Shown in pieces: positions 3,111-12,759 of a stretch of 12,759 nucleotides of DNA. Positions within the stretch are counted from its first letter, which is position 1. Every line of letters begins with the position of its first letter. Under the pieces are notes generated by a model. That model had not been told where the DNA came from. It worked only from the letters and a program-made list of their open reading frames with translations, and did not search any database. The DNA comes from a virus (taxonomy: Duplodnaviria; Heunggongvirae; Uroviricota; Caudoviricetes; Thumleimavirales; Hafunaviridae). Location of the stretch: the IMG/VR virus record IMGVR_UViG_2974793816_000001, positions 1 to 12,759 of that record; one strand, given 5' to 3'. Made by a program: the position numbers and the translations under genes.

Positions 3111-4802
3111 ATGGAGGAAATAGCCGAAAAGTTCGCCTCTGAGAGCGATGCTGACGTTGACGCATTGCTTGAGAGGTGGAACGGTCGCCCCGACCTTCTC
3201 GCGGAGGATATTCTCCGGGCGAAGAATCTGGAGACGGACGAAATTGAGCCGCTGACGCTCTTTCGACCGTACCAGCCCCGGATTATGCACGCCTACTTCT
3301 ACGGCGATGCTAAGATTCTGAACATCTACAAGGGGCGGCGAATCGGTGTTTCCTACGTAATCGGTATCTGTATCCTGATTGAGGCGCTTCTCAAGCCGGA
3401 TACGTTCTACCCCATCCTCTCGAAGACGAAGGGGCAGTCGAACTCGCGGATTAGTGACATTAAGACGCTAATCAAGAACGCGAAAATCGACATTGAGCTG
3501 GAGAAGGACAATCAAGACGAGATTGTTCTCTCGAACGGCTCGCGCATCAAGGCGTACACGGGCGACCCGGACTCCGCTCGTGGTGAAGACCCGCCGAAGA
3601 CGGTTTTCATTGACGAGATGGCGTTCTTGGAAGACCAGAGCGCCACCCTCGATGCGTATTTGCCGACGATTTCTCTCGGCTCCAGTCAGATGGTTCAGGT
3701 GTCCACTCCGAAGGCTCCGAACGACGAGTTCATGGAGGCGAACGAGCGGGGGACGCCGGATGGTCGCAACGACTTCGGGATTCTCGCGCTGAAACAGCCG
3801 ACGTTCAAGAACGCCGACGAGATTCAGACGGACGTTTCGCTGTTCGAGCAGGACGTGGAACCCGTCCGGGGCGACTTCGACCTGATGGCGGCAGAGACTC
3901 AGCGAGCCAGCGACCCTAACGGCTTCGCACAAGAGTATCTGTGCCGCCCTGTGAGCGACGAGTACCGCTTCTTCTCTATGCCTACCATAGAGGCCGCGAT
4001 GGAGCGGGGAGGCCAGCAGGACTACTCCTACGGCCTCAGGCGGTACGAGACTCCCAACACACTCGTTATGGGTGTGGACATTGGGTTCAACTCCGACGAC
4101 ACGGCGATTGTGGTCTTTGAGCATGAAGGCCCGCGTCGGTATCTCCGCTATCACGAGGTCGTGAACGACCGCGTTCTCGAACAGGCGGGAATCACTCCAT
4201 CGAGTCGGCAGAACCCGGCGGCGGTGGCTGAGAGAATCGCTCAGGTCTACAACGGAATGGGCGTTTCAAACGTCGTGATGGACATGACGGGCGTGGGACA
4301 GGGGTTCCACGACGAGGTTCGCCGTCGTATCGGTCGTGGCTACACGGGCTTCAATTTCTCTGCGAAGGACAAGGTGGAGAAGATGATGGGCAACATGAAT
4401 TACGCCCTTCACAACGACCTCGTGTGGCTCCCCGAGGACGAATCCCTCCGTGAACAGCTCGGTGCGATTGTCAAACAGCAGAAAGAGGATTGGCAGAAGC
4501 CGAAGTTCACGGGGAAGGAACACGCCCCGGACGGAAAGGACGACCTCGCTATGGCGACCGTCCTCGGCGCGTTCCCGCCGAACTTCAAGTCCGACAAGTC
4601 GCGGAATCTCCAGCAGAGAGAGAACGTAACCCCTCCAGTTCAAGTGGAACAGTCGGGTGAGCGCGACGGATGGGCGGGATTGAAGATTTCCGGTCAGTCT
4701 TCGAGCGGTCGCGGGTATTCTCTCTCGCACGGGCGGAAGAAGCGCGGGTACGAATCACGAAACAGACGCCGCTCTACCAAGAGGCGGCGACGAACGTTCT
4801 AA
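3111..4802 (+). CDS. terL: Terminase large subunit, 563 aa
   Basis: Deviant Walker A KGRRIGVS (K.R..G.S type), Walker B VFIDEMAF, coupling motif VSTP, RNase H-like nuclease GVDIG and C-terminal DDLAMA; directly upstream of the portal. Confidence 0.95.
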   Translation: MEEIAEKFASESDADVDALLERWNGRPDLLAEDILRAKNLETDEIEPLTLFRPYQPRIMHAYFYGDAKILNIYKGRRIGVSYVIGICILIEALLKPDTFYPILSKTKGQSNSRISDIKTLIKNAKIDIELEKDNQDEIVLSNGSRIKAYTGDPDSARGEDPPKTVFIDEMAFLEDQSATLDAYLPTISLGSSQMVQVSTPKAPNDEFMEANERGTPDGRNDFGILALKQPTFKNADEIQTDVSLFEQDVEPVRGDFDLMAAETQRASDPNGFAQEYLCRPVSDEYRFFSMPTIEAAMERGGQQDYSYGLRRYETPNTLVMGVDIGFNSDDTAIVVFEHEGPRRYLRYHEVVNDRVLEQAGITPSSRQNPAAVAERIAQVYNGMGVSNVVMDMTGVGQGFHDEVRRRIGRGYTGFNFSAKDKVEKMMGNMNYALHNDLVWLPEDESLREQLGAIVKQQKEDWQKPKFTGKEHAPDGKDDLAMATVLGAFPPNFKSDKSRNLQQRENVTPPVQVEQSGERDGWAGLKISGQSSSGRGYSLSHGRKKRGYESRNRRRSTKRRRRTF

Positions 4803-4816
4803 TCTACTCTATTTAA

Positions 4817-6256
4817 ATGACTACTGGCAATTTTGTTGACCCTCCCGACGAGGGCGAGCGGATGGACTTCGCCGCCGACACTCCCAAGGGCGCTATCAAA
4901 GAGCAGGGACAAGGCGGTAGTGGTCGATTCTCCGGCCCTCGTTCTTCTGAGGCTCCGAAAGCGGAGATTGAGAAGAATCGGGATATTGTGCGAACCGACC
5001 CCCACGTTCACGAGGGTCTTTACACACTCATCGACTGGATTTGCGGCGACGGCTTCAATCTCGCTCCGAGCAACGTTCCCGGTACGGGAATCGAGCAGAC
5101 GGAGGAGGATATTGCGCCGATTGCCCTCCTACTCCACAACTCCGAGTTTTGGCGCGTATTCAACCAATGGGTTGAGTACGCGGCTCAGGACGGTCACTCG
5201 TTCATGGAGCTGGTCGTTCAGGACGAGCGGTTCCTTCCGCGCGTTCTCCCGACCGAGCGGATGCACAAGAAGACCGACGAGTACGGCTTCGTAACGAAGT
5301 ACGCTCTGGAGCCTCCGGGTGGCGGTGGCCCCGACGACGACGACGCGACGATTTACGACCCGCACGAGGTCGCGGAGTTGTGGTTCACGAAAGACCCGAC
5401 CGATGATTTCGGTCGGTCGTTCGTCGAGCCGATTCAGGAACAGGCGGATATGCTCCGCGATATGGAGTTTGACTACGCCCGGTTCGTTGCGACGAAGGCG
5501 TACCCGCCGATTCTCTGGAAGCTCGGAACCGAGGAAGAACAATGGTCGGAAGACCAGATTGGCGGCTGGCTGGACACCGTTGAGCAAATCGAGCCGGACT
5601 CGATGCTCGCGGCTCCCCACGACGTTGACTACGACGTAGTTGGCGTGACTTCTACTTCATCGAGTGCGGGTGCGATGAAGCTGGAAGGCACGTTCGAGCA
5701 TCTTCAGAACCGTATCGTCACGGGCCTCGGTATTCCGGCGCTCCTGATGAACATGGATGGTTCGACGGGCGAAGCAACCGCCTCGATGCCTGCTTTCAAG
5801 CGGCGTATCAAGCGGCTTCAAAACATCGTCAAGTCGGCTGTTGAGAACCAGATTCTCAAGTCGCTGATGGTGGAGTCCTCGCTGGACGAGTTTGACGGTG
5901 TGGTTCCCGAGTTTGAGTTCGGGGAACACTCGTCGGCTGAGAAGCGGCTTGAGATTGATAAGCTCATCAAGCTCTATCAGTCCGGTTTCCTCACCCGAAA
6001 GGCGTTCGCTGAGCGGGCTGGAATCGACCCCGAGGTTGAGCTTCCGTCCCCCGACGAGCTTTCGAGTGAGATTATTCCTCTGATTACGGAACTCGCCGGG
6101 CGTGGCGACAGGGTTCAGAATCCTGATGGTGGGCGTCCGACTGACACCGGGACTGGTGTAGAGTCGGCGGGTGGGGAGGTCAAGTCCCGAGAGTCGGGGC
6201 GTGATAGCTCGAAGGAGCGAAATAGACAGTCCATCACGGAGGATGAAAACGCCTGA
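4817..6256 (+). CDS. Portal protein, 479 aa
   Basis: Directly after terL; typical size; portal-like features (FG.S..E.I.....L., I...LGIP..L, coiled RRIKRLQ, long acidic C-terminal tail). Confidence 0.88.
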   Translation: MTTGNFVDPPDEGERMDFAADTPKGAIKEQGQGGSGRFSGPRSSEAPKAEIEKNRDIVRTDPHVHEGLYTLIDWICGDGFNLAPSNVPGTGIEQTEEDIAPIALLLHNSEFWRVFNQWVEYAAQDGHSFMELVVQDERFLPRVLPTERMHKKTDEYGFVTKYALEPPGGGGPDDDDATIYDPHEVAELWFTKDPTDDFGRSFVEPIQEQADMLRDMEFDYARFVATKAYPPILWKLGTEEEQWSEDQIGGWLDTVEQIEPDSMLAAPHDVDYDVVGVTSTSSSAGAMKLEGTFEHLQNRIVTGLGIPALLMNMDGSTGEATASMPAFKRRIKRLQNIVKSAVENQILKSLMVESSLDEFDGVVPEFEFGEHSSAEKRLEIDKLIKLYQSGFLTRKAFAERAGIDPEVELPSPDELSSEIIPLITELAGRGDRVQNPDGGRPTDTGTGVESAGGEVKSRESGRDSSKERNRQSITEDENA

Positions 6257-6258
6257 AA

Positions 6259-6543
6259 ATGCCCGCTGACGAACCAGATGGGGACTCTGAGGTGAAACTC
6301 CTCAAGAACATTCTAAGTGAGATACAAGACCTAAACTCACAGCTTGCTCGAACTGACGAGCGTTCTCGAAACAACCGCGCTCAGGTGGAAGACCTACGGG
6401 ATAACCGTATTGTTCCGCTTGAGGGGCAGGTTGCGAAGAACGACAATCGGAGCCGGAGGAACGCGCTAATTATTGGCGGGTTTCTGACGACGCTGACGCT
6501 TCTCGTGGGTGCGGGGGCTTCGTATCTCTTTACTATCCTATGA
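6259..6543 (+). CDS. Coiled-coil protein with C-terminal transmembrane anchor, 94 aa
   Basis: Heptad-like LKNILSEIQDLNSQLARTDERSRNNRAQVEDL, then RSRRN and a 26-residue hydrophobic C-terminus. Packed between the portal (2-nt gap) and the protease (ATGA overlap). Confidence 0.8.
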   Translation: MPADEPDGDSEVKLLKNILSEIQDLNSQLARTDERSRNNRAQVEDLRDNRIVPLEGQVAKNDNRSRRNALIIGGFLTTLTLLVGAGASYLFTIL

Positions 6544-7304
6544 GTCTCAATCTAACTGAAACTGAATTTTCTGCGAGTACCGATTCCCCGCCGGACGACG
6601 ACAGCCCGACGCCGGTTTCGACCGACGCTCATCTGGAGTTTACTGCCGGTCGCCATTATCCCGAGTCCGTTGACCTCGATGGGTTCAACGAGTACGGGGT
6701 GCGCGAGAACCGCGACGAGAATGGCGAGCTGGTGTCGGTTGACGTTGTGTACGAAGCGATGGAACCCGGCCCGCCCGAAGACCGTAATGGAGTCCGTATC
6801 ACGGACACCTTCTTGCGAAAGGTCGCTGAGAAGAATTACTCGGGTCAGGAGCCGTATATGCTCGGTCACTCCGACCGCCCGCTGGACGAGATTGGTAAAG
6901 TCCAGAAGGTGTGGTTCGAGGAGTCGGTCGAGAAACTGATGCTGATGAATCGGGTGTTCAACACGGGCGCTCCGACCCACGATGAAGTGGTGAAGCGCCT
7001 GACGTACACCCCGCCGACTATGACCGATGGCTCGGTCGGGTTCGGCAATCAGTATGAGGCTGTTGTGAACGACGACGGAGAGCCTGAACTCATCGACGGG
7101 GAGATTCGAGAGTTCAGTACCGTCCCGTTCCCCGGAGGGTACGATGAGGGTGGCCTTGGTCTACCGAGCGCCGCCTTTGCTGAAAGCATCATGGAGCAGG
7201 TGAACGCCGCTGTCGATGATGAGGACGAAGCCAACCCCCTCGATGTGGGGGAGTCCTCGGAGAACTCGGCCTTCTCTGTCCGAACGGAGACTATCTCCTT
7301 CTAA
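6540..7304 (+). CDS. Prohead (capsid maturation) protease, 254 aa
   Basis: Catalytic-type motifs YMLGH and GSVGF plus ..REFSTVPFP, as in HK97/herpes-fold prohead proteases; canonical position. Confidence 0.85.
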   Translation: MSLNLTETEFSASTDSPPDDDSPTPVSTDAHLEFTAGRHYPESVDLDGFNEYGVRENRDENGELVSVDVVYEAMEPGPPEDRNGVRITDTFLRKVAEKNYSGQEPYMLGHSDRPLDEIGKVQKVWFEESVEKLMLMNRVFNTGAPTHDEVVKRLTYTPPTMTDGSVGFGNQYEAVVNDDGEPELIDGEIREFSTVPFPGGYDEGGLGLPSAAFAESIMEQVNAAVDDEDEANPLDVGESSENSAFSVRTETISF

Positions 7305-7310
7305 CTAACT

Positions 7311-7736
7311 ATGGATTTCCAGAAGGTTACTTTTGACACCGACCTCGATGAGATGGAGGCTGACGACCTTGCCGACCTTGTTCGTCAGTTCTCTGAGGCA
7401 CAGGAACAGAATATTGCGGAGTTCGAGTCGGCCAGCGAGACTATCGAAGGTCTTGAGGGTCGCGTCTCGGAGGTTCAGGATTTCGATGCTGAGCTGACCG
7501 AGGAGCTTTCCGAAGTCTCGCCTCTCGGTGAGGACGAGCTGGCAAACTTCTCTATCTCGCGCAAGCGGGAGCTTCTTGCTGAGTTCGCTGAGGCGGATGA
7601 AGACGAGGAGGAGGAAGACGAGGACGAGGAGGCCGAGTTCTCTGACATGGGCCAGCGTGGGGAGACTCACGATGAAGACGCGGAGCGCAACTTCGCAGAG
7701 GAGTACCTCGGAGACATTCCGGGGCTTGGCTTCTAA
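7311..7736 (+). CDS. Probable capsid scaffolding protein, 141 aa
   Basis: Extremely acidic, helical/coiled-coil, with a DEDEEEEDEDEE run; lies between the protease and the capsid genes. Confidence 0.65.
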   Translation: MDFQKVTFDTDLDEMEADDLADLVRQFSEAQEQNIAEFESASETIEGLEGRVSEVQDFDAELTEELSEVSPLGEDELANFSISRKRELLAEFAEADEDEEEEDEDEEAEFSDMGQRGETHDEDAERNFAEEYLGDIPGLGF

Positions 7737-7758
7737 ACAACTGATTTTCTACTAACAC

Positions 7759-8274
7759 ATGGCTAACTTCAAGTTCGCTAAGTTCAAGGACGCGCCGCTG
7801 AACCGCGATGGTGAAACTCTCGACCCCGAAGCGACTCTCCCTCTACTTGAGGGCGACGTTGTGGGTCTGAGCGAAGACGTTGATGGGAACACCATCGTCG
7901 TCGCCGCCGACGCAGACGCGGCGGTTGCACAGCCCGCTGTTGGCGTTCTGATGGAGGACGTGCGCGACCGTTCGTACTGGTCGGCTAACCTCCACGACAA
8001 CGGCACGATGGGTCGTCGCCTCGATGAGGCTTACGACCTCGAACGCACGCAGGCCGGGGATGAGGTCACGTACTTCACCCACGGCATCTACCTCGAAGAC
8101 GAGGACGAGACGGTTGACTTCAACGTGAACGAACCCGTCTATCTCGCTCCGGGCGGCGGCGTGACGCAGACTGCTCCCTCGGCGTCGGGCGAGCTGGTTC
8201 AGGTTCTCGGTGTGGCTGTCAGCTCCACCAGATTCCTGCTCAGCGTTGACTTCGACTACGAGACGCTGGCGTAG
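7759..8274 (+). CDS. Capsid decoration/cement protein (beta-tulip, lambda gpD/DUF2190-like), 171 aa
   Basis: Immediately before the MCP; beta-rich; VYLAPGGGVTQTAPS..GELVQVLGVAVS matches cement-protein C-termini. Confidence 0.7.
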   Translation: MANFKFAKFKDAPLNRDGETLDPEATLPLLEGDVVGLSEDVDGNTIVVAADADAAVAQPAVGVLMEDVRDRSYWSANLHDNGTMGRRLDEAYDLERTQAGDEVTYFTHGIYLEDEDETVDFNVNEPVYLAPGGGVTQTAPSASGELVQVLGVAVSSTRFLLSVDFDYETLA

Positions 8275-8314
8275 AGTACCAGCTAAAGACTTAATCTCTA
8301 CTTTCTAATTCTTT

Positions 8315-9271
8315 ATGGTTAACCGCGAAATCTTCACCAAGGACGATGTTCCGCTTGTCGAGATTGCTGAGAAGACTCAGAATCTCGTCAACTACTTCAA
8401 CGAGGCTGAGCGCCCGTTCCGCGACCTGTTCGTGGAGCAGGTTGACCAGCAGACCTTCCTTCAGGAAATCGAGGCCGACCCCGGCGAGTGGGAGAAGCTG
8501 AGTGAGGGCGAGTTCCCCGGCACGACTCGCGCGAAGGACGACGACTACCTCCAGATGACCATTCGCACGAGCGAATACGGGAAGGCCCTCGGCTTCACGC
8601 AGAAGTTCCTCGAAAAGTCCACCTCCGACCACATTATGAAGCAGGTTCGTAATGTGCTGGAGGAGGGCAAGGAGACGGAAGACCGCATCATCCACGATGT
8701 TATCTTCAACGGCATCGCTGACGGTAGCGAGCCGGTCTGGTTCGACGTTCCCGACCACGGCAACTACGGCTTCGACCGCACCCACTCCCACGTCTTCTCG
8801 GACACCTCGGAGCTGTTCGGTGACAGTACGGCGCACCGCGCGTCCGAACACATCGAGTACGCCGCTGACGAACTGCGTCACCACGGCTGGAACGGTCAGA
8901 AGGTCGCCCTCATGTCCATCGACCTCAAGCGCAAGCTCCGCAACGAGCTTTCGTGGGACATGGACTACCACATCCCGATGGCGACCGGGATGCGCTCGCA
9001 GGACGTGCGTGAGCAGACGTTCAGCATCGACGGTGTTGAGCTGATGACCACGCCGTACCTCCGTGGCGACGAGTTCTACGTTATCGGCGTCGGTGAGAAT
9101 CCTGTCAAGGAATACATCGACCGTCCGATGCAGATTACCCGCCCCACGGGTGGCCCCGCGATGGAGCCGGGCGAGATTGTCAATTCGAGCGCCACGATGT
9201 CGTTCGGTGTCTCGATGACCAACCCGCTCGGCGCTGTCCACTTCAAGGGCGACAGCACGAACTACCAGTAA
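8315..9271 (+). CDS. Major capsid protein (HK97 fold), 318 aa
   Basis: Size and position; strong codon bias suggesting high expression; EYGKALGFT E-loop/P-domain-like segment; followed by an oligo-T terminator. Confidence 0.85.
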   Translation: MVNREIFTKDDVPLVEIAEKTQNLVNYFNEAERPFRDLFVEQVDQQTFLQEIEADPGEWEKLSEGEFPGTTRAKDDDYLQMTIRTSEYGKALGFTQKFLEKSTSDHIMKQVRNVLEEGKETEDRIIHDVIFNGIADGSEPVWFDVPDHGNYGFDRTHSHVFSDTSELFGDSTAHRASEHIEYAADELRHHGWNGQKVALMSIDLKRKLRNELSWDMDYHIPMATGMRSQDVREQTFSIDGVELMTTPYLRGDEFYVIGVGENPVKEYIDRPMQITRPTGGPAMEPGEIVNSSATMSFGVSMTNPLGAVHFKGDSTNYQ

Positions 9272-9294
9272 ACGGGCTGGAAGTTCGGGTTCGA

Positions 9295-9306
9295 TTTTTC
9301 TTTTTT
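9295..9306 (+). terminator. Oligo-T terminator after the MCP
   Basis: TTTTTCTTTTTT about 23 nt after the MCP stop, consistent with down-tuning of the low-copy neck genes. Confidence 0.7.
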
Positions 9307-9316
9307 CGTACTTTCA

Positions 9317-9760
9317 ATGGCAACTGACGATACTACATTCATATCTGAAATCCGGGCGTTCACCGGCATCGAGGTGTCTCGAATCTCCAGCGAGGAGATG
9401 GACGCTGTTCTTTCTGACGCGAAACGGCACGTCAAGCTACGTGCCTCTCTGAACGACGCTGAGGTGGATTGGTATGGCGACCCGGCTCAGGAGGAAGCCC
9501 TCAATTGGGCGACCAAACTTTTCCTAAAGGTTGCCGCAGGCGAACTCGACTCTCAGACTGTTCAGGTAGGCGCTATCGACCACAAGGGCCTGCTCGCCAA
9601 GAACGACAACTCCGTTACCATTTGGTATCGGAATATGGAGAACGCTATCCGCCGGATTACCAAGCCCGGCGCGGCGTTCGGCGTTTCCTCGGTCGCTCGG
9701 ACTGACCGTGAGTATGGTTCTGACACCGAAGACGACTCCGGCGGTGGCATTTCCCTATAA
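9317..9760 (+). CDS. Head-tail adaptor (HK97 gp6/SPP1 gp15-like), 147 aa
   Basis: First gene after the MCP; helical pattern (EIR.F.G....I..E.MD..L..A...V...L...) typical of adaptors. Confidence 0.65.
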   Translation: MATDDTTFISEIRAFTGIEVSRISSEEMDAVLSDAKRHVKLRASLNDAEVDWYGDPAQEEALNWATKLFLKVAAGELDSQTVQVGAIDHKGLLAKNDNSVTIWYRNMENAIRRITKPGAAFGVSSVARTDREYGSDTEDDSGGGISL

Positions 9761-10098
9761 TGGCCCGACGCTCCGTTCACTCGGCTATCGACCGTCTCGG
9801 GCAGGAGATTGATGTTCTAATCGAGGCGAAGACCGGGACTGACGACTTCAATAATCCCGAGTATGATTGGGTTCAGTCTCACACCACTCGATGCGTTAGA
9901 ACATATCCGAATCGGAACACGGAGGTAAACAACCGTGGTGGCCCCCGGAAGCGCGACCACCCCGTGTTCCTGTTCCCTCGGGAGGAAGCCCCGGAAGCTA
10001 ACTCTCGGATTCGCTACAACGGGACTCTCTACGAGCTTGAGTCCCCGACCGTGTACGACACTCACGTTGCGATTTTCGGTAAGCTCGTTTCTGAATAA
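9760..10098 (+). CDS. Head closure/stopper (SPP1 gp16-like), 112 aa
   Basis: TAATG coupling to the adaptor; beta-rich; GTDDFNNPEY.W and RIRYNGTLYEL motifs typical of head-closure proteins. Confidence 0.7.
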   Translation: MARRSVHSAIDRLGQEIDVLIEAKTGTDDFNNPEYDWVQSHTTRCVRTYPNRNTEVNNRGGPRKRDHPVFLFPREEAPEANSRIRYNGTLYELESPTVYDTHVAIFGKLVSE

Positions 10099-10100
10099 CA

Positions 10101-12759
10101 ATGGGTAAGATACGGGTTCGAGTCAAAAACGAAGACCGCGTTATCCGCGAGATTAAGCGGGATTTCAAGCGCGGGATGGACAAGTCTGCCAACGCGATTG
10201 CTGAGGCTGGACGCAATAAGGCGCTCCAGATTATCAATCAGAATCAGGCGTACTTCAACTACGAGGTCGCCAAAGGATTCCGAATCATCGACGCGGCAGA
10301 CAGCTCTACTCGTTCCAGTATCAAGCTCATTAACGAAGCCCCACACGCAGGGGCGCTCGACGCTGGTGTTCCAGCGGCGAAGTACGCTGACGGCGGCCCT
10401 CCAGTTCAAGCCCTCCTTCCGTGGGTTCAACGGAAGATGGGCGGCTACGACCTCGGTGGAAGCGAAAGTGACGGTGGGAGCGGTGGTAACGACCCCGACC
10501 CATCGGACTCGATTGATGAAGACAAGGCCGAGAAAGAAGCGCCTGAAATCATCAGCGAGGAACGCTTCGACTACGAGAAGTCTGGATTCGAGGAAGAAAT
10601 CTCGGCGTCCAGACTCGAAGAAGGCGACGTTCTTGACCTTCGCGGAGATGGAATTAGTGGTCGATATGTTGTCACTAACATTACTGGTGACTACATTGAC
10701 GCGACGAACTACCGCGAGAACATCAACGCGAATCTTGACCAGATGGTGTTCGGTGGGGGCTACCAGAACCTCCACGGCTACGGTCGCGTCGGTCGTGTCT
10801 CCGACTCGGAGCTTTCCGTGGGAGATACGGTCTACAACAAGAACGGCCAACTCGGTGTTGTCACGCTGATTGACTCCGACGAGATAATCGTCGAGTTTGA
10901 GGATGAAGTGGGGACATATGAGAACGCAATTCGGCGTCCCACTAACGACTTCATTCTCGCCAACCCCGAGGAGGTCGTTGACGACGAAACCGACCCGTTC
11001 GACGTTGCGAGTCAGCTCTCCAGCATCACCCTCGATGGGGCTGAGACGGATGGGCTTGATGAGGATACGGCGGAGGCCCTACTCCAGCAGTTCGATAAGG
11101 TAATTCGGGGCCACGGCTACCCACCCGTGTCTCAAATCGTGACAGACGACACTCTGGACACGATTGACGCCGCTGTTCGACCCGGTGGCGATTCGAGCGT
11201 TCTCAAGATTCCGTCTCAACTCATCGAGCCGGGAGGCCGAATTGAGGGAATCGAGGAAGCGAACGAGAACGTCGATTGGGAACAATCCCGGCGGGCATAC
11301 GTCGCTATCAGAGACGGACGGGGCGCGGAGTACGCGCTCCTACACCAGTACGGGGAATACCTGTTCGATAACCTCTCCGACGACGCGAAGGCGTACCTCG
11401 CGGAGAACAGCACGACCATCGACCTCGTTGGTGGTGAGCTGGTTCCCTCGGACGACTCGGTTCCGAACATCTGGAGGAAATACTCCGCAATCAGCGGAGA
11501 CAGCCTCAAGAGCTACTTCGGGGAGAACTTCGCGTCCTACATCATGGACGACAACGATGTGTTCCGCGAAGACACACTCACCCGACGTTCGCGGTTCTTC
11601 GAGGTCGCGCTCGGCAACCCCGAGCAGTATTTCGACGTGAACGTTCCGAGTGGTTGGGAGCGACCCGACTACTACCTCGGCGTGGACTACGACGGAAAAC
11701 CACTACGGGAGTCCGACCTCCCCGATGGATACAGCCTCGCGTTCGACCGAGCGTTCGGTGACATATACGACTTCAACCGGCGAGAGAAGTACGTCGTCCA
11801 AACTGGCGACGGTGAGCTGGTCGAAACTCGTGTGTTCGAGCGCCTTCGAGCGGGGGAACACTCCCTTGAGCGAAACGAAGACCTCGTTCGGCTCGATGAG
11901 GTTGACGGCGACCGGAAGTTCTACTACTACGGTGGGGGTGAGAGCTTCACCATCGTCGGTCAGGAGACTAAAGACTACGAGTTCTCCCAAATCGACCGTG
12001 GCGACTTCGTGATTGTCAAAGAGACTGATGGTTACGAAGACGAAGGTGAGGTGATTGACACCCACTACGCTCGGGTTAGTAGCCGTCCCGGTTACGACGA
12101 CCGGGCGGGCGACTACCTCGGTGAAGCGACCGACGTGGTTACGGGCGAAACTGTCCAGTTGGACAGATACAGCTTCTACGGTCGTCGTGACACCCACCTC
12201 GATGAGTGGATGCGCGACGTGGATACGCTGGAACACACCCCGGACTCGGAGATTCCCGAGAGCCTAACCACGGACTTCGACCCGGAGCATATCGACCTGA
12301 GCTTCCGGTACGCTCACGAAGACGCTGACGGCCAAGGCCCGGTGGTCTACATCAAGACCAACAACGGCGGGAACGTCTACCCGGCGAAGGTCAAGGGAGG
12401 TCGCGGCGACAGGCTCAATCTCGAATCCACGGAGGTTGACGAGTTCGGTGAAACTCGGACGTGGACTCGGGAGGGAGATGGAAGTGGGGACGCTGAAATC
12501 TACGCTATCTCACAAGACTACGAGAACTTCCGTAGTCTGGAGGAGGGGGACGACATTATCATCGACCCCGAGCTTCTTGACGTTGAAGACCACCCGTTCC
12601 CCGAGGATACGCTTTCGAGAGCGACTATCTCAAGCGACTTCAACGGGGTCTTCGCAAGACCGTGGGCGACCTCTGGTGAAGGTGTGAGAGTTAACCACGA
12701 TGCGTTCGTGGATATTCGAGAGAACGTCCCGACTTGGGATGCTTACAACATCGAGGAGG
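10101..12759 (+). CDS. Giant acidic protein (>=886 aa, 3'-truncated by the window): HK97-gp10-like neck domain fused to a multidomain extension; absent from the ORF track
   Basis: Translated by hand from ATG 10101 (2 nt after the previous TAA) with no stop to the window end: MGKIRVRVKNEDRVIREIKRDF...APHAGALDAG...GGPPVQALLPWVQRK-GGYDLGGSESDGGSGGNDPDPSDS-...WDAYNIEE. Halophile-type codon usage throughout. Confidence 0.92.
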   Translation, partial: MGKIRVRVKNEDRVIREIKRDFKRGMDKSANAIAEAGRNKALQIINQNQAYFNYEVAKGFRIIDAADSSTRSSIKLINEAPHAGALDAGVPAAKYADGGPPVQALLPWVQRKMGGYDLGGSESDGGSGGNDPDPSDSIDEDKAEKEAPEIISEERFDYEKSGFEEEISASRLEEGDVLDLRGDGISGRYVVTNITGDYIDATNYRENINANLDQMVFGGGYQNLHGYGRVGRVSDSELSVGDTVYNKNGQLGVVTLIDSDEIIVEFEDEVGTYENAIRRPTNDFILANPEEVVDDETDPFDVASQLSSITLDGAETDGLDEDTAEALLQQFDKVIRGHGYPPVSQIVTDDTLDTIDAAVRPGGDSSVLKIPSQLIEPGGRIEGIEEANENVDWEQSRRAYVAIRDGRGAEYALLHQYGEYLFDNLSDDAKAYLAENSTTIDLVGGELVPSDDSVPNIWRKYSAISGDSLKSYFGENFASYIMDDNDVFREDTLTRRSRFFEVALGNPEQYFDVNVPSGWERPDYYLGVDYDGKPLRESDLPDGYSLAFDRAFGDIYDFNRREKYVVQTGDGELVETRVFERLRAGEHSLERNEDLVRLDEVDGDRKFYYYGGGESFTIVGQETKDYEFSQIDRGDFVIVKETDGYEDEGEVIDTHYARVSSRPGYDDRAGDYLGEATDVVTGETVQLDRYSFYGRRDTHLDEWMRDVDTLEHTPDSEIPESLTTDFDPEHIDLSFRYAHEDADGQGPVVYIKTNNGGNVYPAKVKGGRGDRLNLESTEVDEFGETRTWTREGDGSGDAEIYAISQDYENFRSLEEGDDIIIDPELLDVEDHPFPEDTLSRATISSDFNGVFARPWATSGEGVRVNHDAFVDIRENVPTWDAYNIEE

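Follow-up and report, generated by a model that had tools for sequence, protein, structure and literature searches.

A tail completion protein extended by an exchangeable 900-residue acidic module in a haloarchaeal tailed virus

The window analysed here is the whole stretch of 12,759 nt that opens the 76,759-bp genome of a Hafunaviridae virus (IMG/VR record IMGVR_UViG_2974793816_000001), a genome with direct terminal repeats. Its last open reading frame (ORF) starts two bases past the stop of an SPP1 gp16-like head-closure gene, the two genes being tightly coupled, and stays open to the window edge (886 residues); a further 458 nt beyond the window complete a protein of 1038 residues (Table 1). 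An original prediction made from the window had described a giant cargo-bearing neck protein missed by the ORF track. The frame merely runs off the window, and its orthologues are annotated in GenBank, where they carry the label hypothetical protein. The genes at this locus follow the order terminase, portal, 94-residue ORF, prohead protease, 141-residue ORF, gpD-like decoration protein, major capsid protein, 147-residue ORF, head closure, 1038-residue ORF, 73-residue ORF, gp17-like tail terminator, sheath, tube, chaperones and tape measure. The long gene lies between the head-closure gene (Hc1) and the gp17-like gene in the Tc1 slot (13477-13986), and distant relatives show the same order.

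Table 1. Coordinates of the 1038-residue ORF, its parts and the gene preceding it
Feature	Position	Strand	Residues	Remarks
Head-closure gene, SPP1 gp16-like (Hc1)	9760-10098	+		phrog_501 E 6e-6; weak PF05521; annotation in relatives
Whole ORF	10101-13217	+	1-1038	ATG 10101, stop 13215-13217; 116.5 kDa; phrog_20771 matched end to end
Tail completion protein domain, HK97 gp10/lambda gpZ/80alpha gp51 type	10101-10439	+	1-113	pI 10.05
Gly/Ser/Asp-rich flexible linker	10440-10511	+	114-137	Recombination breakpoint 10444/10445
Acidic region	10512-10985	+	138-295	Two GD-motif beta units (about 172-201, 240-275); poorly modelled
Alpha/beta domain	10986-11705	+	296-535	Probably LF/MtfA-like zincin fold with degenerate active site
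HQYGE in place of zincin HExxH	11343-11357	+	415-419	
Tudor/SH3-like beta-barrel	11937-12200	+	613-700	Five-stranded barrel fold
Second copy of the 613-700 barrel	12501-12740	+	801-880	hhalign probability 84%, E 7e-6, 74 columns

We assign the N-terminal domain with high confidence to the tail completion proteins (TCPs), and hold the fused, modular build of the protein to be equally secure. A profile of 48 N-domains from relatives gave as its best PDB match 9mu2_P, the TCP gp51 of 80alpha/SaPI1 and a member of the HK97 gp10 family (E 0.008, spanning 12-99 of 117 profile positions). The motif quoted in the original prediction sits at residues 80-112, and H82, A83, G89, P100, P101, L105, P107, W108 and V109 are invariant or nearly so in the 48 relatives. 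AF2 modelled the domain (pLDDT 72-94) as a long helix, a beta-hairpin, a short helix and a C-terminal helix, which agrees with the published description of gp51; the expected TCP fold is present. The GPPVxALLPWVxRK stretch is the C-terminal helix of a complete tail completion fold, reached by residue 113. The idea that a C-terminal gp10 segment is missing here and might resume at the far end of the protein is thus rejected, as the last 150 residues are beta-barrel-like and nothing gp10-like was found there. The original prediction called the first ~112 residues basic or neutral; residues 1-113 hold 20 K+R against 12 D+E and are basic, and with its pI of 10.05 the domain stands next to portal, capsid, adaptor, terminator, sheath, tube and tape measure proteins of pI 4.1-6.1.

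No second, stand-alone TCP was found in the genome, so that residues 1-113 are its only TCP-like domain. PF04883 and VIRFAM Ne1 members are typically single-domain proteins of about 110-200 residues, and 80alpha gp51 (9mu2 chain P), lambda gpZ, SPP1 gp16.1 and HK97 gp10 are all single-domain proteins of about 110-190 residues, whereas 920 extra residues are present here; the 1038-residue protein is a fused variant containing a TCP domain and not a typical family member. In 80alpha a single TCP molecule occupies the neck lumen; its aromatic residues stack on the last base pair of the DNA, and its hairpin is joined in one sheet by the N-termini of three tape measure chains. The gp10-type start in the predicted slot is supported by profile, fold and neighbouring genes (Hc1 and the terminator), while the label neck protein is misleading, since the solved family member is a single luminal copy and not a ring.

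The full 1038 residues are uninterrupted in 33 Haloferacalesvirus (Hafunaviridae) records at 85-98.5% identity (tblastn, phage records), including HF1, HF2, HRTV-5, HRTV-8, HCTV and HJTV isolates, Hardycor2, Serpecor1 and Hardygib1. Pairwise comparison with HRTV-5 and Hardycor2 gave a dN/dS of 0.14-0.19 overall and of 0.04-0.38 in each of seven segments, the junction included; the entire length is therefore constrained coding sequence. The original prediction had allowed for two genes joined by a sequencing error. Apart from the unusual length of the ORF nothing points to such an artefact, the probability of which we regard as negligible: 33 isolates, sequenced independently and originating from several countries, share the same open frame, distant relatives are fused likewise to other extensions, and purifying selection runs across the junction. 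A short TCP form produced by frameshifting or an internal start was also considered and rejected, as a slippery heptamer is absent near the linker and the sole X XXY YYZ site is at codon 1027.

The gene itself has been noticed before. Dyall-Smith et al. 2020 (PMC7230728) described in HF2 the long, divergent gene Nep1 (HrrHF2_575) with a gp10-like start; their VIRFAM Ne1 (HK97 gp10) match was significant only over the first ~129 residues of the HF2 orthologue, and two proviruses share only the first 387 nt with Nep1, the remainder being unrelated. Nep1, HRTV-5 gp17, Hardycor2 HrrHc2_090 and HRTV-22 gp16 are the same gene as the one studied here (1037-1038 residues). That paper gives no domain analysis of the last ~900 residues, no link to zincins, no cassette boundaries and no function; Liu et al. 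2021 do not discuss the gene. In the literature library searched we found no publication on the extension domains, the zincin cassettes described below, their partner ORF or a clash with an internal TCP position, and, judged by titles, none on a tail completion protein-metalloprotease fusion. Thus, the long gp10-headed gene has been known since 2020 and the zincin cassettes appear to be new.

The linker that the original prediction placed after the N-domain is present and contains no K or R. It is followed by 901 residues with 205 D+E versus 84 K+R (pI 4.19), in keeping with the predicted long, stop-free acidic extension, which is open to the window end and intact in 33 genomes. Besides the elements listed in Table 1, several further GD-motif beta units look barrel-like. 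A weak match to YajC (SH3-like) covers residues 236-269 (E 0.008), and the S1-S4 hhalign comparison gave E 0.012. Pfam searches with an E limit of 10, run on the entire protein and on six segments, returned noise only (YajC 0.008, Ntox24 0.16), with no toxin or enzyme family matched in any segment of the extension. Foldseek with the full-length AF2 model (mean pLDDT 45.6) gave nothing significant and some weak tandem-Tudor rows. The extension is mostly poorly modelled because its relatives are few.

To place the protein in a family we searched it in full with phmmer against 1.84 billion representatives. This yielded 44 matches of 131-1137 residues, almost all confined to residues 1-140; the relatives share only the first ~115-140 residues, and in nearly all of them a Gly/Ser/Asp-rich linker follows the PWV helix. 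The sequences fall into class A (27 representatives, 446-1137 residues), class B (8 sequences: 3 phmmer representatives, the query and four HF1-group clusters), class C (4 representatives of about 325 residues with HExxHxxH) and class D (3 representatives of about 200 residues). Related viruses that share the gene order also have stand-alone TCPs of 131-142 residues, and the fused layout with different extensions is found in distant relatives as well. Word-index searching for further class-B relatives returned the four known clusters only, and a scan of genome contigs for provirus relatives confirmed none.

The extensions are exchanged between close relatives. Six Haloferacalesvirus records share only residues 1-113 with the 1038-residue protein (82% identity); the HJTV-2 counterpart (gp131, class A) has 821 residues and an HEFGH motif. 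DNA identity with HJTV-2 is 88% over 4111-10444, none over 10445-13213 and 89% from 13214 onward, a pattern showing that the cassette swap runs from the first linker residues to the stop codon. The large payload foreseen in the original prediction is thus fused; it is not inserted, the TCP fold being complete before the linker. The type of cassette is independent of the host: HJTV-1 and HJTV-2/3 all infect Haloarcula japonica, and HSTV-4 and HSTV-3 both infect Halorubrum sodomense, which argues against a receptor-binding role.

One alternative is an external location, in which the gp10-like domain would be anchored at the head-tail joint and the multi-barrel module would project outward as a collar or whisker serving adhesion or stability, on the model of lactococcal neck passage structures and T4 fibritin. 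Small beta-barrels arrayed in tandem on a flexible tether typify decoration and adhesion modules, the gene occupies a neck slot, and the T5 TCP, which carries an extra domain, is located outside the tail. The solved gp10-type TCP, however, makes few contacts to the outer rings from its luminal position, and the strongly basic N-domain suggests DNA contact. A collar is mentioned neither in a haloarchaeal virus review nor in the HF1-group genomics paper. The indifference of the cassettes to the host, together with a dN/dS that is low throughout and leaves no diversifying segment, also speaks against an appendage, which we consider improbable.

An AF2 model of the alpha/beta domain (residues 296-535) from the 8-row class-B alignment had a mean pLDDT of 53; only residues 408-485 were confident and the N-terminal half was unusable. 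The best, though weakly scored, fold neighbours of residues 403-518 were LF, MtfA and PA-binding domains. Foldseek with residues 296-535 gave nothing significant, and PPEP-1/2 and LF made up about half of its top 50 rows; shape searches of the same model against afdb_clusters and atlas gave nothing clear. A language-model search with residues 300-620 hit clusters with Peptidase_Mx1, ATLF and Peptidase_M90 at 0.93, and these Mx1/ATLF/M90 clusters are also the neighbours of class A. No sequence-level match to the gluzincins of the LF/PPEP (M34) or MtfA (M90) type was obtained, and all fold scores were weak. When the class-B extension was compared with the class-A zincin by hhalign (whole, N-part and C-part) the result was not significant, so that sequence profiles leave the homology of the two cassettes unproven.

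The helix expected to bear HExxH reads HQYGE at residues 415-419. The HExxH of gluzincins (LF/M34, MtfA/M90-like) is present in class-A and class-C relatives and lacking here. H and Q of HQYGE are invariant in 8/8 class-B sequences, all of which read HQ[YV]G followed by E, S, R or T where the second His would be expected. E475, 60 residues after H415, is kept by those class-B sequences that extend over this stretch; in hhalign (E 0.07, not significant) it aligned to the second conserved Glu of class A and not to the Y+7 Glu. As these individually weak lines agree, we judge it fairly probable that residues 296-535 form a zincin fold that has lost catalysis. The PA-binding domains of LF, EF and Certhrax offer a precedent, being non-catalytic LF-like domains in which the fold is kept and the metal site lost, as appears to be the case here. 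With HExxH decayed to HQYGE, the class-B module most likely binds rather than cleaves, and the low dN/dS in all segments indicates that it matters even without catalysis.

Class A retains what class B seems to have lost. HExxH was found in 22 class-A members at a near-constant 297-416 residues (mostly 297-361) from the C-terminus, with H, E and H invariant and followed downstream by an invariant Tyr and Glu seven residues apart (Y-x6-E). Tyr728 and Glu735 of LF have the same spacing. PDB matches of the class-A profile were weak and consisted of zinc proteases only, and class-A members had no Pfam match other than PF04883. No class-A zincin was found elsewhere in the present genome.

The HJTV-2 cassette includes an overlapping ORF of 99 residues. 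Homologous ORFs of 86-100 residues lie 3' of the class-A gene at three further metagenomic loci and at 7/9 HExxH loci from IMG/VR, and are absent after class-B and stand-alone TCP genes. At four loci of relatives the ORF was located at L002:8463-8762, L004:9411-9671, L008:2925-3185 and L009:4284-4586; it is acidic, weakly conserved and without Pfam match, and overlaps the stop codon of the class-A TCP-fusion gene. It could encode an inhibitor, chaperone or immunity-like partner of the protease. The usual presence of this ORF beside intact zincins suggests that the class-A protease is restrained in the producing cell; if an active protease must be restrained, a host-directed enzyme is favoured for class A. 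A different arrangement was observed at L027:4820-6940 (L028 is near-identical), where a compact 706-residue TCP-zincin fusion comes without the small partner ORF. Its HExxH is separated from the YSxxNAxE helix by only about 140 residues, the large insert of other class-A members being missing; this fusion may be the one best suited to solving the structure of the active enzyme.

Taken across the classes, the TCP could tether interchangeable cargo that is first to enter the cell. In most lineages this would be an LF-like metalloprotease accompanied by a small inhibitor-like protein, and in the HF1 group a dead derivative capable only of binding; we offer this as a speculative outline. Class B would then keep only a binding or structural role.

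The original prediction had likened the protein to MuF head proteins that carry polymorphic toxins. In MuF-toxin fusions and in tape measures with lytic domains (T5 pb2) an internal virion protein carries a variable C-terminal enzyme, a comparable layout, and delivery of the cargo with or ahead of the DNA would be a shared feature. In contrast to both, the carrier here is a TCP, the host is archaeal, the cargo is seemingly dead and no immunity-like neighbour is present. A constant N-terminal virion domain with variable C-termini, and a sister class with an intact LF-like zincin usually followed by a small overlapping ORF, would suit a strict MuF-style carrier, by which an active toxin or enzyme is delivered to the host and paired with an immunity gene. 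For the protein studied here such a carrier is nonetheless very unlikely. HExxH is replaced by an HQYGE-type motif in all class-B members, no toxin family is matched, the module is 85-98.5% identical in 33 genomes rather than polymorphic, and the next ORFs (73, 169 and 430 residues) are those that also follow stand-alone TCP genes, with no extra ORF that could serve as an immunity gene. Of the MuF-like features, then, variable C-termini were found, and a recognisable toxin or enzyme and a cognate immunity gene were not. The comparison stands as regards a constant anchor with swappable modules, suits the HExxH relatives fairly well and fails for a toxin or enzyme in this payload (HQYGE, no Pfam family). 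Likewise, the variable extensions expected among orthologues were observed (131-1137 residues; the HJTV-2 swap), while the expected immunity-like gene is absent 3' of this gene and usual with the HExxH relatives.

We propose the following mechanism for the virus. The gene encodes its only TCP, the C-terminus of which is extended through the flexible linker by a 900-residue exchangeable acidic module. By analogy with 80alpha, a single copy of the basic TCP domain would reside within the neck, where it would cap the leading end of the DNA and hold the tape measure N-termini; from the published account of 80alpha we infer that its C-terminal helix would point down the tube. As internal cargo in single copy, the tethered module would exit through the tube together with the tape measure, immediately before the DNA, and may serve as a pilot or counter-defence factor, either at the host envelope or inside it. 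The tape measure of this virus starts (genome 16698-16790; L011:3499-3590) with a beta-strand-like MSVKIDLDL and then a helix, a start that is kept in two distant relatives and resembles the segment by which the 80alpha tape measure N-terminus pairs with the TCP hairpin. This strand-helix start and the pI of 10.05 fit an internal, DNA-contacting role. For the whole explanation, namely a sole TCP, an exchangeable acidic module, a dead zincin and internal cargo, we estimate a probability of roughly 45%. The step to internal, ejected cargo is tentative in its own right; on the present analysis we lean towards an internal pilot cargo over an external appendage.

Several observations weigh against this mechanism. 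None of the four major virion bands of HF2 (23-72 kDa) corresponds to the protein, although a single-copy protein would escape detection on a stained gel. The HF1/HF2 tail measures 90-94 nm and should be filled by a tape measure of 605 residues. A folded zincin-like domain of ~200 residues would be too large to lie beside the tape measure in a tube of about 36-40 Å (36 Å in HFTV1); storage would require the module to be extended or partly folded, as a 100-kDa chain fits by volume only then. The location of a TCP has been solved within one phage only, and the T5 TCP sits outside, on the tail tip. Finally, the 1038-residue protein alone has no PF04883 match, even at E 10, and PF04883 searched against the whole genome gave none; the family link is hence transitive, via phmmer relatives such as P0034 (27.5 bits) and P0044 (25.9 bits), which lie above the cut-off of 21.4 bits.

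The difficulty of housing a 100-kDa folded module in the neck or tube could be avoided if the module worked solely during assembly. It would act in the infected cell, for instance by chaperoning or timing the insertion of the TCP or the joining of head and tail, or, in the HExxH class, by taking part in tape-measure processing, and would then be clipped off at the linker, leaving only the ~12-kDa TCP in the virion. The linker is long, flexible, exposed and free of K/R; tape measure proteins are often cleaved by an unidentified protease; and the stand-alone TCPs in viruses of the same gene order imply that the TCP job needs no extension. The HF2 band pattern is also compatible with such processing. 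On the other hand, no protease site or sign of processing was found, and no frameshift or slippery site would provide a short form. Class B has lost the catalytic motif, yet its module is under purifying selection, and the swap of cassettes between otherwise 88-89% identical genomes would be left unexplained. An assembly-only module is accordingly a serious, if unlikely, alternative to ejected cargo.

T5 p143 provides a parallel to the TCP fusion: this TCP, present in one copy per virion and released on infection, bears an additional domain at its C-terminus (residues 81-255). Its addition is only 175 residues, mostly helical and placed on the tail tip, and no sequence similarity to the module described here was detected. 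The extra 100 kDa of folded domains fits poorly at the 80alpha TCP site, between the DNA end and the tape measure, and placing the extra part would test the generality of the 80alpha picture. To our knowledge, TCPs are nearly universal in long-tailed phages and were located in the virion only in 2024-25.

Should the module be ejected, archaeal tailed viruses would have their first candidate for an injected effector, and the sister cassettes with intact zincins would be candidate proteases against a host protein, possibly of the S-layer or a defence factor. Ejection of a TCP-borne module would add a third phage route of cargo delivery to the two that use MuF fusions or enzymes carried on the tape measure; for archaeal viruses it would be the first such proposal. 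Good genetic tools exist for Haloferax, the genus that Hardygib1 and HF1 infect, and this makes the question answerable at the bench.

Three minor features of the locus were noted. The 73-residue ORF that precedes the tail terminator gene (13219-13440; L001:4619-4840) is without family match and has counterparts of 51-77 residues in relatives; a small ORF of this size always separates the TCP gene, or the partner ORF, from the terminator, even where the TCP stands alone. The 94-residue ORF between the portal and prohead protease genes (6259-6543), which overlaps the protease start and is annotated as hypothetical, is kept in HJTV-2, HRTV-22 and metagenomic relatives. In relatives, the tail chaperone pair (L002:11463-12246, L003:11815-12595) is annotated in GenBank with a putative programmed -2 translational frameshift.

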